64,000 nt of DNA from NCBI GenBank assembly GCA_963695555.1, contig CAVOGR010000001.1, positions 800,001 to 864,000 on the forward strand, written 5' to 3'. The notes beneath the pieces were generated by a model that was not told the origin of the DNA, made no database searches, and was given only the letters and a program-made list of their open reading frames with translations. Source of the DNA: an uncultured Gemmatimonadales bacterium. GTDB taxonomy: Bacteria > Gemmatimonadota > Gemmatimonadetes > Gemmatimonadales > GWC2-71-9. Shown here piece by piece: positions 10,569-19,933 of the stretch (the stretch's first letter is position 1; each line of letters starts with the position of its first letter). The position numbers were made by a program, and so were the translations under genes.

Positions 10569-10642
10569 GCGCCCGTAGCTCAATTGGATAGAGCATCGGA
10601 CTTCGGATCCGAGGGTTGGGGGTTCGAGTCCCTCCGGGCGCG
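10569..10642 (+). tRNA. tRNA-Arg, anticodon TCG (CCA not encoded)
   Basis: Acceptor GCGCCCG/CGGGCGC, D arm TAGCTCAATTGGATAGAGC, anticodon arm TCGGA-CTTCGGA-TCCGA, T loop GTTCGAGTC. Confidence 0.95.
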
Positions 10643-10644
10643 CT

Positions 10645-10699: not shown

Positions 10700-10790
10700 A
10701 GATCGGGGGAGCGGTGACCTCCTCCGTCCTTGCCGTCGGGCCGCTCTCACGAAATCTTCCAGGGCAGAAGCGTCCCGACTCCCGATGCCG
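10700..10790 (+). promoter_or_regulatory. Structured 5' leader, possible glycine-riboswitch-like variant
   Basis: GGGGGAG..GCCGTCGGG..GAAATCTTCCAGGGCAGAAG order resembles the glycine aptamer (GGAGA..CCGAAGG..AAUCUCUCAGG); several mutually exclusive helices. Confidence 0.3.
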
Positions 10791-10824
10791 AGCAGGAGCA
10801 CGGTCATGGACCCGAGGAGACGCC

Positions 10825-12285
10825 GTGAGCAGCACTGAAAACCCAGCCAGCACCACGTTACGCAGCCGCATCCTCGGGGTCGAGCAGGAAGTCCCGTTGC
10901 TCGACGGGCGGATGGGGCCGTACGTCAACTTCGACAACGCCGCGAGCACGCCGCCGCTGGTGGACGTCATGGATGCGCTGACGCGGTTCCTGCCTTTCTA
11001 TTCCAGCGTGCACCGGGGGACCGGTTTCAAGTCCCGCTTGAGCAGCGAAGCCTACGATGACGCGCACAGGATCCTCACCAGGTTCGTCGGGGCCGACCCG
11101 GCCAGCAACACTGTCATCTTTGGCAAGAACACCACCGAAGCGATCAACAAGCTGTCCTACCGGTTGGCGCTGTCCTCCGACGCGGTCGTGCTCTCGTCGC
11201 AGCTCGAGCACCACTCCAACGATCTCCCGTGGCGGCGTACGGCCCAAGTCGTCCACGTCCGGGCCACCCCGGATGGCCGATTCGATGAAGACGACTTCGA
11301 CCGGCAATTGGCGCAGTATGGGAACCGCGTCGCCCTGGTCTCGGTGACCGGGGCCTCGAACGTGAGCGGCCTCATCCCGCCCATCCATCGACTGGCCCGG
11401 AAAGCCCATGCGGCGGGCGCACGCATTCTGGTGGATGCCGCTCAGCTCGCGCCCCATCGGCGGATCGACATGAGGCCCGACAACGATCCGGAGCATCTCG
11501 ATTTTGTCGTCTTGTCGGCACATAAGATGTACGCGCCGTTCGGGACCGGGGCGTTGGTGGGGCCGAAAGAGGTGTTCCTCAGGAGCGCGCCCGAATACCA
11601 GGGTGGGGGCACTGTCGATGTGGTAACCCTGGACGAGGTGCATTGGGCGGATGTTCCCGACCGCGAGGAAGCCGGGAGCCCCAATGTGGTCGGTGCGGTG
11701 GCCATGGCCGCGGCCGCGGCGGCCCTGATGGATGTCGGGATGGACACGATCGCCGAGCATGAGACCCGGCTGGTGAGCCATTGTCTCGAGCGGCTTCGCG
11801 ACGTGCCAGGGGCGGTGGTCTACGGGGACCGAGATCCGGCGCTGGCACACACCAGGGTGGGCGCCATCCCGTTCAATCTCGAGGGCGTGTCGCACGCGCT
11901 CCTGGCGTCCATCCTTGGTTACGAGGCCGGGATTGGCGTCCGGCACGGCTGCTTCTGCGCCCATCCCTACGTGGTGCATCTGCTCCAGCTCAGCGAAGCG
12001 GACGCGGCATCCTGGCGCGCGCAGGTCCTGACCGGCGACAAGTCCAACATGCCCGGGATGGTTCGCGTGAGCTTCGGGTGCTACAACACCACCGAGGAGA
12101 TCGATCGCCTGATCGACATGCTGGGCCGGATTTCCCGCGGCCAATACCAGGGCCGCTACCGGCAGCTCGCCGGGAACGGCGAGTACGTGCCGGAAGGACA
12201 GTCCATGCGATTCGATGAATACTTCTCCCTCGAACCGGGCGCGGCCGGATCGGGCGGGCTTCCGGAGCGGCTCTGCGGCGGCTAA
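10825..12285 (+). CDS. Aminotransferase class V PLP enzyme (cysteine desulfurase/SufS-like)
   Basis: NFDNAAST, EHHSNDLPW, DAAQ, SAHKMYAPFGTG (PLP Lys), RHGCFCAHP (catalytic Cys); GAGGAG RBS before GTG 10825. Confidence 0.9.
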   Translation: MSSTENPASTTLRSRILGVEQEVPLLDGRMGPYVNFDNAASTPPLVDVMDALTRFLPFYSSVHRGTGFKSRLSSEAYDDAHRILTRFVGADPASNTVIFGKNTTEAINKLSYRLALSSDAVVLSSQLEHHSNDLPWRRTAQVVHVRATPDGRFDEDDFDRQLAQYGNRVALVSVTGASNVSGLIPPIHRLARKAHAAGARILVDAAQLAPHRRIDMRPDNDPEHLDFVVLSAHKMYAPFGTGALVGPKEVFLRSAPEYQGGGTVDVVTLDEVHWADVPDREEAGSPNVVGAVAMAAAAAALMDVGMDTIAEHETRLVSHCLERLRDVPGAVVYGDRDPALAHTRVGAIPFNLEGVSHALLASILGYEAGIGVRHGCFCAHPYVVHLLQLSEADAASWRAQVLTGDKSNMPGMVRVSFGCYNTTEEIDRLIDMLGRISRGQYQGRYRQLAGNGEYVPEGQSMRFDEYFSLEPGAAGSGGLPERLCGG

Positions 12286-12335
12286 GACCTCGCGTCATGC
12301 CCGTCTCGAGTCCTCAGCCGGGTGACAACCCCACA

Positions 12336-14123
12336 ATGACGAAATCCCTGCTCGTGATCGGCGGTGCCTCGCTCGATATCCTGCACTTCCGAGGACGAAC
12401 GGCACGCTCGGCCGGCGGGGCGGGGCTCTACACTGCGCTCGCGGCCCATCGGGCCGGAGTGCGGGTCACCATGATCGGCCCCCGGCCCAATCCGATGCCG
12501 CCAGAACTCGGCCCCGCGGCGGAACGGATTCAATGGATCGGGCCCCAGGTGACGCCTGAAGAGTTGCCCACGTTCGAAATCGCGCACCACGGGGCTGGAT
12601 ACTCCAATATCGAAAACATCTACTGGCGCTCCGAGGCAGCACTCTCGCCGGCGGATCTACCCGGGCTCGAACCGGGTCACGACTTGGTCTATTGCATCGG
12701 GCTGACCGACCCCCAAAGCCAACTCGCTTTCGTTACCTACCTGCGGTCCATTGGTCGGACGGTGGCGTGCGGTACCTATGGTTGCGCCGTGACCGATCAT
12801 GCGCCTGTCGTTCGCGAAATCATGGAATTGGCGGACATCTTCTTCTGCAATGAGTCGGAAGCCGTCGGTCTCTTCGGTTCCGTCGAGGGGGCCCGCACCC
12901 AGTCCGGCAAAGTCCTGTTCGTCACTCGTGGACCGCGAGGGGCCAGGGTGATTCTTGGCGACTATGCAACCGACATACCGGCAATCCCTGTCCGCGAGTT
13001 GGATCCGACCGGCGCCGGCGACACATTCTGCGGAACCGTGCTGGCCTTTCTGGCGCACAATGCTCATCCGGTCATTGCGGCGGAGCACGGTGTAGCCGCC
13101 GCGGCTGAGATGATTACCGGCGTGGGCCCTGAAACTCTGCTCCGCGCCGCGCCGACGCCGGCCCCGCCGGACGACCCGCGGGTTCGTGTAGATGAAGCGC
13201 AAGCGGGTCGGATCGGCCGTCTGATCGGTTCGCTTCCGGAGGTCGAACCGTTCGACTTCACAGGCGAGCTGTTTCCACCGCCGGGACACACGGCTGCGTT
13301 GGATTTCTTTTTCGCGGCCACACTCCAGCAATTTGGATTCTGGAACGAGCAGGGCGGGCGCTACACCGCGCCGATGGTCGCGAGCGTGGGTGGGATCGAG
13401 CGCAAAGGAAGTGACTATCTCTGGGCGGCCTACCGCCGCTGGATGGAGGACGATCCGGAGGGACTGACCCCCGCCGCGCAGGCGTCGCTCGATCGCCCCG
13501 CCCTCGCCGCTCACACCCGCTCGGATTCGGGGGCGAGCCCGCTTCCGGTTCTCGACCTTCGAGTCGAGGCGGCACGCTCGTTTGGGCGCGACATGACCGC
13601 GCTAGGGTGGACCCCGGCCTCGGTTCTTCAGCACGCCAACGCATGCCCTGCGCCGCTCGAGAGCTTCTTGTCCTCACTCGATCGGGTGGGCGGATACAAG
13701 GAGGACCCGCTCCGAAAAAAGTCCGCGCTGCTCGCCGTCATTCTCGAGCAGCGGCCCGAGCGCTTTCTGAAACACATCCCCGGCGAGACCACGCCGCCAA
13801 TCGTGGATTACCACGTCATGCGGAGCTGTCTTCGTATGGGACTGATCCGGATCGATGACGAGGAGCTGTTGCGCAAACTCGAAGGCAGGGAGACGGTGCC
13901 GGCCCCGGACGAGTGGGCCGTTCGGCACGCGTCGTATCGTGCAATGACCCGGCTGCAGGGAGTCAGTGGCCGGTCGATGGGGGCAGTCGACTACTTCTTC
14001 TTCCAGAACCGTCGGCGCTGCCCGGAAATGACGGCACCGGATTGCGGCCGATGCCCGGTCGATCCAGCCTGTGCCCACGCCATCGGGCTGTTTCAGCCGG
14101 TGGTTCGCACCACATTCTACTAG
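12336..14123 (+). CDS. Fusion: PfkB carbohydrate/nucleoside kinase + queuosine-salvage (Qng1/DUF2419)-like glycosylase domain with C-terminal 4-Cys motif
   Basis: AGGAG, CNESEA, TRGPRG, DPTGAGDTF (PfkB); QQFGFW, RKKSALL, IVDYHVMR..LRMGLI, DEWAVR (Qng1-like); C-x7-C-x2-C-x5-C tail. Confidence 0.75.
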   Translation: MTKSLLVIGGASLDILHFRGRTARSAGGAGLYTALAAHRAGVRVTMIGPRPNPMPPELGPAAERIQWIGPQVTPEELPTFEIAHHGAGYSNIENIYWRSEAALSPADLPGLEPGHDLVYCIGLTDPQSQLAFVTYLRSIGRTVACGTYGCAVTDHAPVVREIMELADIFFCNESEAVGLFGSVEGARTQSGKVLFVTRGPRGARVILGDYATDIPAIPVRELDPTGAGDTFCGTVLAFLAHNAHPVIAAEHGVAAAAEMITGVGPETLLRAAPTPAPPDDPRVRVDEAQAGRIGRLIGSLPEVEPFDFTGELFPPPGHTAALDFFFAATLQQFGFWNEQGGRYTAPMVASVGGIERKGSDYLWAAYRRWMEDDPEGLTPAAQASLDRPALAAHTRSDSGASPLPVLDLRVEAARSFGRDMTALGWTPASVLQHANACPAPLESFLSSLDRVGGYKEDPLRKKSALLAVILEQRPERFLKHIPGETTPPIVDYHVMRSCLRMGLIRIDDEELLRKLEGRETVPAPDEWAVRHASYRAMTRLQGVSGRSMGAVDYFFFQNRRRCPEMTAPDCGRCPVDPACAHAIGLFQPVVRTTFY

Positions 14124-15930: not shown

Positions 15931-18481
15931 ATGCCCGACAACCCGGCCGACAACGATCCCCTCACGCGCCTCCGCACGGCGCTGGCCGAGCGATACGAGG
16001 TGCTTGACCAGATCGGGCAAGGTGGCATGGCCACCGTGTATCTGGCGCGCGACGTCAAGCACGAGCGGAACGTCGCTCTCAAGGTCCTTCGGCCCGAACT
16101 CAGCGCCTCGCTCGGCGCGGAGCGCTTCCTGCGAGAGATTCGGGTCGCGGCGAACCTCCAGCATCCCAACATCCTGGCACTGTACGACTCCGGCGACGCG
16201 GATGGCTCCCTCTACTACGTCATGCCGTTCGTGGAGGGCGAGTCGCTGCGCGATCGGCTCGATCGCGAGCGACAGCTCACCATTCCCGACGCCCTCAAGA
16301 TCATCCGGGAAGTGTCGGAAGCGCTGAGCTACGCCCACGCCCAGGGTGTCGTCCATCGCGATATCAAGCCCGAGAACATCATGCTCATGGCCGATCATGC
16401 GCTGGTGGCCGACTTCGGGATCGCGCGCGCCGTCGAGGAGGCCGGCGACGACAGGCTGACCCAATCGGGCATGGCCATCGGGACCCCGCTCTACATGAGC
16501 CCGGAACAGGCCGCCGGGGTCGAGCGGGTCGACGGCCGGAGCGACATCTACAGTCTCGGGTGCATGCTGTACGAGCTGCTGACCGGGGAGCCGCCCTATC
16601 TCGGCTCAACGCCGATCGCGCTCATGACCAAGCACTCGATGGAGGCCATCCCGAGCAGCAAGGTGCTTCGGAACACCGTTCCGGATGAGGTCGATGCCGC
16701 GATCGGGAAGGCCATGGCAAAGGTCCCGGCCGACCGGTTCCAGACCGCACTTCAACTCGCGGAGGCCTTGGGCTCTGTCGAGCACCGGATGAGCATGGGC
16801 GTTGCTCTTCCGGTCACGGTACCTGTGCCGGCCCGCCCCACGGTGGAGCTGCCGAAGAAGCGGGGGCTGTCGAAACTTGCCTTGGCCATGGGTGCCGGAG
16901 GGCTCCTCGTGATTCTGGGGGCCGTCGCCGCCTGGCAACTCGGCCTGTTCGGGGGCGGCGACGGGACGCTCTTCGAGGAGACCGGGCCCGACCCGCGGAA
17001 CATCGCGGTGCTCTACTTCGATGATCAAAGCGCCGACCGCAATCTGGGGTATCTGGCCGATCGGTTTCACCGAGGCGTTGATCGGCGAGTTGAGTCGGGT
17101 GCAGGGGCTCAAGGTGATCTCGCGGAACGGCGTCTTGCCCTACCAGGGTCAGCGGGTGTCTCCCGACAGCATCGCGCGGGCACTCGGCGTCGGGACCTTG
17201 GTCCAGGGCACCATTCAACAGTCGGGTGATCGCCTCCGGATCAACGTCTCGCTGGTCAATGCGGCCGACGGTGCCGAGATCGGCAAGACGACCCTCGAAC
17301 GGAACAAGGACGAGACCTTCGCCCTCCAGGATGACGTGAGCCGGGAGGTGTCGGCCTTCCTCCGACGCCGGCTGGGCGAAGAGGTCCAAATTCGCGAAAG
17401 CCGGCGCGGCACCGGCAATCTCGCCGCCTGGCAGAAGGCCCAGGAGGCCGAGCGGCTGGAGCGGGGGGTACAGGCGTTTCTGGATGCCGGAGACGTCGAG
17501 GCCGCGTCGCAGGAATTTTCCCGCGCCGACTCGCTCTTTGCGGAAGCTGCGTCGCTGGACGACAAGTGGGCGAGTCCGGAGATTGCGCGCGGCTGGATCG
17601 ACTACCGGCGGGCCCGAGAGCTGGCGCGAGGGTTCGACAAGGCGCACTACGCCGAGTGGATCGAGAAGGGTCTGGTCCACGCCGACCGTGCGCTTGCGCT
17701 GGCACCGAACGACCCTGACGCCCTCGAGCTTCGAGGCACGTTCCGGTATTTGAACTATCTCCTGAATCTCGTGCCCGATGCCGAGCAGGAATTGTCCCTG
17801 GCGGAGCAAGATCTCGTGGCGTCGGTGCGGGCCAATCCACAGCAGGCGTCGGCGCTGACCACCTTGAGCCATCTGCTCATGAACCAGGGCAAGACCGCCC
17901 AGGCCAAGGTCCAGGCCCAGCGTGCCTACGAAGCGGATCCCTACCTGAGCAACGTCGATCGCACCATCTGGCGGCTGTTCACCAGCTCACTCGATCTCGA
18001 TGAGGCGGTCGAGGCCACGCGATGGTGCGAGGAAGGAAGGCGCCGCTTTCCCGACGACCCGCGGTTCGTCGAGTGCCAAATCCGAGTGTTTGCCTTACGG
18101 GGCCAGACGCCGGATGTTCCCAAGCTCTGGCGATTGGTCGATGAGTACGTCGAGAAGAGCGCCGAAAATCTCCGCGAGTTCCGGCGCAAGCGGGCCGGCA
18201 TGTTCGTGGCGATGGCGTTGGTGCGCGCCGGCTTGCCGGACAGCGCGCGGGCGGTTGCGGTCCGGTCACGGGCGGACGCGGAAATCGATACGGCTCGGGA
18301 GCTGGCCTGGTTCGAGGCCATCGTCCGAACGTTCCTGGGCGAGAAAGACCAGGCCATCGACCTGCTTAGCGTGTACCTGGCATCCAATCCGGGGCAGCGC
18401 GCCTCCTGGGCCCGCGATTCGACGTGGTGGTTCAAGGATCTCCGGTCCGACCCTCGGTATCGGGATCTGGTAGGATCCTAG
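15931..18481 (+). CDS. Hanks-type Ser/Thr kinase with TM, TolB-N-like and TPR domains (frameshift near 17062)
   Basis: GQGGMATVY, VALK, HRDIKPEN, DFG, GTPLYMSPE; removing one C near 17062 joins 'IAVLYF..YLAD' to 'GFTEALIGELSRV'. Confidence 0.88.
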
Positions 18482-18582
18482 CTGCTCTAGCAAAACTCCG
18501 ACGACACCATACATTGGTAGGCAATAGCCCCTCGTACTGGGGAATCCCCTCGTTCATACCTGCGTCTACCTTGGAGGGCCGC

Positions 18583-19933
18583 ATGCGACGCGGAATGCAA
18601 ATTGTTGCAGCTGTACTCGTGGCGGGGGCCGTCGCTGCCTGTAGCGACGAGAGCCCGACGGTTCCACAGTTGTTGGAGCCACAGTTCGTCATTGCGCCAG
18701 GCACCGACGTGGCGTGTGACTTCAAGGATCTCCGCACCAAGGCGGCACCGGCCTACTTCAAGAACGGGTCGACCACGCTCCGGACGGTGAAGGGCCTGAT
18801 CCAAGAGATGGAGAGTGCCGGGGCAGGATCAAACGGGGCCAGGGCCATCGGCTTCCAGATCTTCGAGATCATCGAAGAGCCAGGTCGAGGCCAAGGTTGC
18901 CGGCAGCCCCTCCCATATCGATGGGGGAGCGGCGAATGGGTCGGATTTCATGAACAAGACCCTCGCCTGCATGGAGCCGGCACCCTTCAAAGCGGTCGAC
19001 TTCACCGCGGCGCTCGATGACGTCGTCGGTGGCGGTGGCGGTGCACTGTGCGTCCGCGGCGGGCCGAACGACGATCCGTCGGCCTGCGTGACCTTCAATG
19101 GCTTCTCCGGGCTCTCGCCGAATGCCGGCAGCAGCTTCACGACTTGGTTCGGAGGTCGGAGGCTGGTCTATGCCGCGCCGCTCAACATCTTCACCAGCAA
19201 CGAGGTGATCGTCGGCGGCCGATACGAGTGGTCCACGGTGCCCCATGCGGCTCTCGACAACACGCAACGGCAAGGGCGTCGTGGGGATGTGCGTGCCGAA
19301 TCCGGTGAACGCCCCGGTCAATCGGGTGCAGCACCGCGAGCAGGGTAATACGGCGACGATCTTCTTCTGGCAGACGCCGTCTTCTTGGACAGCTTCCTTC
19401 CCTGCGATGACTTCGCGGCACTCGACCGTGGGTCGACTTCTCCTCTGTTCGAGTTTGCGCGCAACGCGTTCGACTGGGCCAGCCCGCGGCCGCTCTACGC
19501 CTCGGCGCTCAAAGTCGGTGGCGGCACCGGCGGCTCGCTCGGCGACCTGAGCAAGTTCGCGGTGGTCAACGCGCAGGCAGTGAACCTGGCCTTCACGACG
19601 CAGCCAGTCGACGGGTTCCTGAATCAGCCGCTGAAAGACATCGTGGTACGGGCGTTCGGCAATGGGAATACCCCTTTCATCGACCTCAGCGTCACGGTCC
19701 AGATCAACGTGAACAACAGCGTCAACGCCACGTTGAGCGGCCCGTCATGCACCGTGGTTGGGCAGATCGGGACGTGCACTGGCACCACCGATGTGAATGG
19801 CGAGGTGACCTTCTCCGGCCTCACGATCGACAAGACCGGCGGCTACCGGTTGCTGGCGACGACGACCGACCTGCCGCTCAGCTCGCCCGATGCGGCCCAG
19901 GCGGTGTCCAACGGGTTCAACATCCGCCCGTAA
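18583..19933 (+). CDS. Surface lipoprotein with C-terminal Ig-like/invasin-like domain (about 3 frameshifts: near 18877, 19266, 19385)
   Basis: Lipobox VAAC; coding continues across ORFs 18424, 18815, 19245, 19385; 'LAFTTQP', 'TDVNGEVTFSGLTIDKTGGYRLLA'; GGAGG RBS. Confidence 0.7.

Follow-up and report, generated by a model that had tools for sequence, protein, structure and literature searches.

A conserved fusion of a PfkB-family kinase with a Qng1-like N-glycosylase domain, a candidate enzyme for the salvage of 7-deazaguanine nucleosides

The window analyzed here, a stretch of 64,000 nucleotides from an uncultured Gemmatimonadales bacterium, contains a gene whose 595-residue product joins a PfkB-family kinase to a domain with the fold of the N-glycosylase Qng1. 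This protein very probably carries out a two-step chemistry, in which an imported nucleoside is phosphorylated at its 5' position and the product then undergoes Qng1-type hydrolysis. Our preferred reading, which we put at roughly even odds (about 0.5), is that the pair of activities salvages a 7-deazaguanine nucleoside for TGT. In this scheme, a 7-deazaguanine ribonucleoside would be imported; the PfkB domain, as predicted, would 5'-phosphorylate it with ATP; the Qng1-like domain, as predicted, would hydrolyze the monophosphate via Asp491 to ribose-5-phosphate and a free base; and TGT would use that base, most likely preQ1 or preQ0 and not queuine. The features of the gene are collected in Table 1.

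Table 1. Features of the fusion gene, with positions in the window and residue numbers of the 595-residue product
Feature	Position	Strand	Remark
Whole fusion gene	12336..14123	+	Open frame; full-length model pLDDT 94.5, pTM 0.94
PfkB/ribokinase-family kinase domain (residues 1-270)	12336..13145	+	Short-lid type; nearest PDB entry 3kd6
PfkB anion-hole motif DPTGAGDTF (223-231)	13002..13028	+	D229 in 93/94 fused homologues
Pro-rich linker (271-281)	13146..13178	+	Spanned by independent contigs
Predicted Qng1/DUF2419-fold N-glycosylase domain (279-595)	13170..14120	+	Profile, Foldseek, VIA
QQFGFW (331-336)	13326..13343	+	StQng1 V71-W76; N72 replaced by Q332; ribose-stacking F75 kept
KGSDYLW	13404..13424	+	StQng1 G92-Y93-W94; 7-substituent pocket altered (S359, D360)
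RKKSALL (460-466)	13713..13733	+	K461 = HhH lysine K199; L465 = I203
IVDYHVMR (489-496)	13800..13823	+	D491 = catalytic D231; Y492 = Y232; H493 in place of K233
DEWAVR	Residues 525-530	+	Translation
Four-cysteine loop C562/C570/C573/C579, predicted EndoIII-type [4Fe-4S] site	14019..14072	+	Sits before the tail
C-terminal tail, last residue Tyr595	14091..14120	+	Catalytic terminal Y323 of StQng1; Tyr in 94/94

An earlier note, made from the sequence alone, had described one uninterrupted ORF with a complete PfkB domain, and both points are borne out by the open frame and a match to PF00294 (E = 3.6e-20); the motifs it listed (DPTGAGDTF, the Pro-rich linker, QQFGFW, GSDYLW, RKKSALL, IVDYHVMR, and DEWAVR) are all present in the translation. 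An alternative ATG upstream, at 12297, would give a product of 608 aa; most homologues have about 595 aa. The match of the second domain to PF10343 (Q_salvage; E = 1.4e-4, 22 bits) lies below the Pfam gathering score of 25 bits, which some homologues do pass. Searching with residues 280 to 595 yielded 1,165 proteins among 7,997 candidates scored, the best 120 of which are mostly about 595 aa long and carry PfkB. Both domains lie within one ORF at 64 of 75 related loci (with a frameshift in 4 of these), the remainder being 8 stand-alone glycosylase genes and 3 truncated by contig ends. By record title, the loci belong to Anaerolineae, Gemmatimonadota, Acidobacteriota, and Woeseiaceae, the groups in which fused forms occur, and stand-alone relatives are found in Patescibacteria. 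A misjoin is ruled out by the 64 loci with a single ORF and by independent contigs, from two public runs (records 15 and 28), that bridge the linker, so the survey of domain architecture suggested in the note leaves a fusion that is real and conserved in several phyla. Its distribution in its own phylum is patchy (5 of 121 Gemmatimonadota genomes). Contigs from RNA libraries cover the gene, although coverage of that kind cannot show transcription. No promoter-like site was found, and terminator-like matches are at chance level; IMG/VR, INPHARED, and PLSDB yielded no relative, and PADLOC returned no match.

A PDB search with the single sequence was weak (QNG1 at E = 1.7 only), so the C-terminal domain was compared by means of a 98-row profile, which aligns with almost the whole of StQng1 and human QNG1 (E = 2-3e-14). 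The AlphaFold model of the domain (pLDDT 97.9) gives Foldseek TM scores of 0.74 to 0.80 against Qng1 and at most 0.52 against DNA glycosylases, and VIA gives Z scores of 28 to 30 and of no more than 14.9, respectively. Compared with Qng1/QNG1 (DUF2419, PF10343; StQng1 7uk3/7u91 and human 7ugk), the full-length folds are alike (Z of 29, rmsd of 2.4 to 2.6 Å over about 290 residues) at 17 to 19% identity, and the termini superpose, with the last model residue, 317, paired with StQng1 Tyr323. The likeness to Qng1/DUF2419 that the note had read from short motifs thus holds at the level of structure and profile (Z of 29, E = 2e-14). It is scarcely credible that the domain is instead an EndoIII- or AGOG-like DNA or RNA repair glycosylase: the HhH Lys/Asp pair, the four-cysteine loop, Z scores of 13 to 15 to EndoIII, MutY, and AGOG, and the location of stand-alone relatives near topA, gyrA, and parAB would suit such an enzyme, but the model shows four of the five insertions by which Qng1 closes off the DNA cleft (the β4-β5 hairpin alone is shortened), Z to Qng1 is 29, and the fusion partner is a small-molecule kinase. 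The open DNA-binding cleft of EndoIII-type glycosylases is accordingly lacking in the model, and both Foldseek and VIA favor Qng1 over the DNA-repair glycosylases, a match to which the note had named as evidence against its view.

Residue roles as given in the accessible part of Hung et al. 2023 (PMC9881137) were mapped through the profile alignment, that is, at the sequence level only. Invariant in all 94 fused homologues (StQng1 numbering) are F75, W76, K199, I203 (as Leu), D231, Y232, E267, R271, D298, and Y323, with K461, D491, F335, Y492, Y595, E526, D552, and L465 among the counterparts in the query; the HhH Lys/Asp pair, F75, Y232, E267, D298, the terminal Tyr, and the cleft-blocking insertions are features common to the fusion protein and Qng1/QNG1. 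Of these, F75 and Y232 stack on the ribose, and E267 anchors the terminal Tyr. Within the guanine-face set (D298, I203, W302), D552 and L465 are invariant and W302 is Phe in 94/94 fused homologues (Trp in 32/55 stand-alone ones), and because D552 matches D298, the base would be guanine-faced. At the phosphate site (R80, K233, Q306, Y232), H493 (His for K233 in 94/94) and Y492 are invariant, and R559/R560 and K357 may substitute for the remainder. The cyclopentenediol pocket (W48, Y93, W94, W299, P46, H53) appears not to be kept, its positions aligning with F308, S359, D360, Y/W553, F306, and F313 (Y93 to Ser in 90/94 and W94 to Asp in 86/94), nor does the proton relay (D69, N72, D207), which aligns with T329, Q332, and I469 in the query (Thr in 81/94, Gln in 94/94, and Ile in 87/94). 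These alignments suggest that the domain retains what it needs to cleave a guanine-faced nucleotide and that the part recognizing the queuine side chain has been rebuilt. Given the replacements of Y93, W94, D69, and D207, this is not an ordinary Qng1, and since two defining Qng1 features fail, we do not file the fusion protein as a member of Qng1, though it would work like one. It differs from Qng1/QNG1 in its sub-cut-off Pfam score, its replaced queuine pocket and proton relay, the Phe at W302, the four-cysteine loop before the tail, and the N-terminal kinase.

The four cysteines are invariant in 94/94 fused and 54-55/55 stand-alone relatives, and the C-x7-C-x2-C-x5-C spacing recurs in 121/121 proteins (the best 120 of the 1,165 relatives plus the query). 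The note had the protein ending in this motif; C562-x7-C570-x2-C573-x5-C579 is present, but a 16-residue tail to Tyr595 follows it. The loop starts where the tail of StQng1 starts, and its likeness to EndoIII, also proposed in the note, agrees with the spacing and with weak matches of the profile's tail to EndoIII/ROS1 tails (E = 0.07-0.35). With Endonuclease III, MutY, and AGOG, the fusion protein shares the HhH fold and a cysteine loop after the last helix (R-x-x-C and P-x-C); it differs in that its first gap has seven residues (six in EndoIII-type enzymes), Z is only 13 to 15, the DNA cleft is predicted to be blocked, and the fused clade has no repair context. By analogy with EndoIII (PMC9266487, accessible portion), the loop probably binds [4Fe-4S], a cluster that would be structural, would anchor the catalytic tail, and would go back to an EndoIII-type ancestor, Qng1 having since lost it; the loop may instead hold Zn or no metal. 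A gene for a SufS-like cysteine desulfurase (window 10714-12285) precedes the fusion gene, and SufS and SufE genes follow it in two Anaerolineaceae loci (L049, L054), a weak hint of a need for Fe-S.

The kinase keeps the PfkB features D14, G27-G28, N172-x-x-E175, the predicted catalytic D229, and the GAGD anion hole, and no characterized PfkB subfamily fits it, all NCBIfam scores being far under their cut-offs. Its best profile match is the Chlorobium tepidum PfkB "nucleoside kinase" PDB 3kd6 (TM 0.76, rmsd 3.0 Å, 24% identity), which, unlike the fusion, is stand-alone, and whose label is the depositors' own, since we found no paper naming it. The pTM of the full-length model (0.94) points to a fixed arrangement of the two domains. 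Phosphorylation would come first because Qng1 prefers 5'-monophosphates and the phosphate site is still basic (H493, Y492, K357, R559/R560). The reverse order, in which the glycosylase hydrolyzes the nucleoside and a ribokinase traps the freed ribose, is very unlikely: the best Foldseek matches of the kinase are mostly ribokinases (with structure scores similar to that of 3kd6), the phosphate-site residues R80 and K233 are not kept as such, and the preference of StQng1 for Q-5'-MP over Q is just 1.7-fold in the accessible text of PMC9881137, but the kinase sequence is nearest to 3kd6 (E = 3e-22, versus 3e-13 for E. coli ribokinase), its NCBIfam ribokinase score is 47 against a cut-off of 300, and the basic residues on the phosphate side are invariant. 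Of the two kinase roles that the note left open, phosphorylation before deglycosylation is thus the likelier, and phosphorylation of released ribose loses ground. Two observations count against our preferred reading, namely, that no close kinase was found in the five genomes with a stand-alone glycosylase (0/5) and that the kinase motif looks degenerate and dead in two members of the more remote fused clades, whose kinase is otherwise of this type. Stand-alone sister kinases (P0387-P0506; 45 to 57% identity, named mostly from Chloroflexota) form a large subfamily (length about 280 aa) that shares the residues on the substrate side, and they are candidate partners of canonical Qng1 in Chloroflexota.

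In the window, the fusion gene lies between the SufS-like desulfurase gene and a DUF4184 gene, an order found only in the two closest loci. A tRNA-Arg(TCG) (10569-10643) sits just upstream of the desulfurase gene, and a Ser/Thr kinase-TPR gene (15931-18481) and the next gene (18424-19933) are split by apparent frameshifts, the former being one ORF in the relative locus L001. Our neighbor scan took in 149 proteins, namely, most of the 169 cluster representatives and a few chosen by hand, and 20 of the 75 loci, from about six lineages, proved to hold a gene for nucleoside transport or catabolism; such genes occur in about 2% of random windows, drawn from the own genome only. A NupC nucleoside transporter adjoins the fusion gene in 7 loci, and other neighbors include members of the phosphorylase family (9 loci), NCS2 permease (5), phosphopentomutase (5), NUP (4), deaminase (2), nucleoside hydrolase (1), and APRT (1). 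A 190-aa gene without annotation or Pfam match recurs in the Woeseiaceae nucleoside cluster (L009:2598-3197, L016:3580-4152), next to aldehyde dehydrogenase and 2OG-Fe(II) oxygenase genes. Loci with stand-alone, Patescibacteria-like forms have no informative neighbors. Against a deazaguanine substrate, tgt, queA, queC, queE, and QPTR occur in none of the 75 loci; queG is present in 5, some 4 to 5 kb off on the opposite strand.

These neighbors, general nucleoside catabolism genes without que genes, bear on an alternative that we consider possible but unlikely. Here, the two-step chemistry would be unchanged but directed at a different modified or damaged guanosine (7-methyl, 8-oxo, or ring-opened), either to obtain ribose-5-phosphate or to clean up, and the QueC pattern described below would reflect lifestyle. 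Loss of the D69/D207 relay and gain of D360 would suit a cationic or pre-activated base, GTP cyclohydrolase II, which yields ring-opened GMP, is a fusion partner or neighbor of remote relatives, and an archaeal look-alike cluster has AGOG hits in 25% of its members. Conversely, QueC is depleted in two separate lineages, the structure is far nearer Qng1 than AGOG, 7-methylguanosine is already a phosphorylase substrate, and the cyclohydrolase-linked proteins form a separate long branch. That distant branch of the same fold is either fused to GTP cyclohydrolase II (P0224, PF00925 E = 4.5e-38) or encoded directly behind one (L175:4360-5875), within an integrase island that also holds genes for a DNA methylase, a dCTP-deaminase-like protein, and an AAA kinase. 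Ring-opened GMP may be its substrate, and it possibly belongs to a defence or nucleotide-modifying module. The look-alike cluster in the ESM Atlas (345 members, mostly archaeal, "iron-sulfur cluster loop," with AGOG and Q_salvage hits) resembles the C-terminal domain and has a possible link to archaeosine turnover.

Our preferred reading, salvage of a 7-deazaguanine nucleoside, draws on the queuosine pathway of the carriers, for which we tested the own genome together with 50 genomes from the set of 75 loci, picked for larger contigs and spread. The survey of tgt/que genes that the note had called for returned, in these 51 carriers, TGT in 49, QueA in 48, QueF in 25, and QueC in only 11, and QueG was present in 5/5 carriers tested. 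Neither QueC nor QueF is found in 25/51 carriers, including 21/46 of those with TGT and QueA, which would consequently need an outside source of preQ1. PF06508 matches in the own genome are 20- to 22-bit fragments, not QueC. In the own genome, tgt and queA are frameshifted (L076/L078, G000:C1:201696-203870); the sister genome G121 has both genes intact, which makes sequencing errors the probable cause.

Group samples served as controls for the loss of QueC, the Anaerolineae carriers adding little to the pattern. QueC is present in 87/101 Woeseiaceae genomes and absent from 5/5 carriers and 9/96 non-carriers (Fisher p = 2.5e-5; 1.4e-3 without two carriers known beforehand); in Thermoanaerobaculia it is present in 146/201 and absent from 3/3 carriers and 52/198 non-carriers (p = 0.02; 0.07 without the centre genome); and in Gemmatimonadota it is present in 87/121, with no association (three carriers with and two without it; Fisher p = 0.62). 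These p values overstate the case, since kin are not independent: in a quick family tree without bootstrap, the copies from Woeseiaceae fall into a single branch nested within those of Chloroflexota, so that group is probably one event. Of the handles used, G023/G121, G080/G163, and G098/G139 are each the same genome, and the unpublished genomes G055, G195, G273, G372, G403, G443, and G447 enter only the three group tallies, as QueC-positive non-carriers. An aspartokinase gene follows cpoB with no queE-queC between them in 3/5 Woeseiaceae carriers (the other two end at a contig edge), and queE-queC follows cpoB in 4/5 QueC-positive relatives. QueD (PF01242) is missing in 5/5 carriers and 5/5 QueC-lacking non-carriers but also in 4/5 QueC-positive relatives.

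Because QueC is lost while TGT, QueA, and QueG are kept and because ordinary phosphorylases and hydrolases need N7, the substrate would belong to the 7-deaza class; nucleosides that ordinary enzymes cannot cleave need a dedicated route, and 7-deazapurines fit. Several points count against salvage: 11/51 carriers do have QueC (Palauibacter-type carriers have both it and the fusion gene), the Qng1 proton relay, important by complementation, is not kept, and preQ1 riboside is not, to our knowledge, abundant. Most QueC-lacking genomes are without the family (9/14 in Woeseiaceae, 52/55 in Thermoanaerobaculia, 32/34 in Gemmatimonadota), so uptake of the free base can suffice, and a scavenging lifestyle could account for both gain of the fusion and loss of QueC.

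The type of TGT narrows the product. Among 45 TGTs read, the residue at Z. mobilis position 233 is Val in 42 and Ile in one, with one unreadable and one divergent; the accessible parts of two papers state that queuine-inserting TGTs have GG[LS][AS]G in this region (PMC11570991) and that Val233 bars use of queuine (PMC3660597). To judge from these residues, nearly all of the carriers' TGTs are of the preQ1 type, whence the useful product would be preQ1, or preQ0 where QueF is kept, and, together with D360/S359, a small or charged 7-substituent (preQ1, preQ0, or archaeosine) is suggested. TGTs of the own and sister genomes combine Val233 with Val at position 158, a eukaryote-like residue, and three Anaerolineae genomes (L171-L173) have a second, divergent TGT-like gene, each followed by similar unidentified genes.

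The same data make it improbable that the protein has the function of Qng1 and brings its own queuosine kinase, converting Q via Q-5'-MP to queuine, which a relaxed TGT would use directly or which would be used by way of an unknown lyase. Among the nucleosides of its class, Q is the one that is naturally abundant, S359/D360 could hydrogen-bond the diol, one Patescibacteria-like carrier that was checked has only a TGT with a divergent pocket and no QueA, and some stand-alone relatives bear the automatic NCBI name "queuosine salvage family protein." Canonical Qng1, too, was found in none of the 51 carriers, where PF10343 matches are all weak (best 5e-11) and look like the fusion family itself; in the own genome, this search lacks a positive control, and elsewhere the same model picks up the fusion family weakly. 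However, Y93, W94, D69, and D207 are replaced, the Val233 kept in 42/45 TGTs blocks use of queuine (PMC3660597, as accessible), and TIGR01212, the family to which QueL belongs, was not matched above cut-off in any of 62 genomes (54 carriers among them). Queuosine as the substrate, the first suggestion of the note, therefore fares poorly, as queuine-pocket and relay residues are replaced and the carriers' TGTs are of the preQ1-inserting type; its second suggestion, another modified nucleoside, fits better and is narrowed by the QueC pattern to 7-deazaguanine nucleosides.

In the literature and supplements searched, we found neither the fusion nor an Fe-S Qng1 described, though subscription reviews may mention either. 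The accessible text of PMC11130926 names only QueK and Qng1 as characterized hydrolases. Salvage by the fusion protein would resemble indirect salvage through QueK and QueL and direct salvage of queuine (PMC11570991 and PMC11130926, as far as accessible) in feeding TGT without de novo synthesis, whereas QueK and QueL have unrelated folds (nucleoside hydrolase and radical SAM) and involve no kinase step. The accessible parts of PMC9881137 and, still in 2025, of PMC12207525 describe as unidentified the kinase that supplies QNG1 with Q-5'-monophosphate. The conserved fusion of a specific PfkB subfamily with a Qng1-fold hydrolase offers a single gene in which to test for that step, and a candidate source of preQ1 for carriers without QueC and QueF. 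The family, mislabeled in databases as "carbohydrate kinase" or "queuosine salvage family protein," also links Qng1 to the iron-sulfur DNA glycosylases. More doubtfully, it may represent an unrecognized third bacterial route of queuosine salvage. A single polypeptide would then phosphorylate queuosine or one of its relatives and supply canonical TGT with preQ1, bypassing QueK and QueL and perhaps stripping off the cyclopentenediol as well. In that case, its kinase domain would be the first one identified that acts on a nucleoside of the queuosine family and could lead to the eukaryotic kinase still being sought, and the iron-sulfur loop would record the transition from glycosylases of DNA repair to Qng1.
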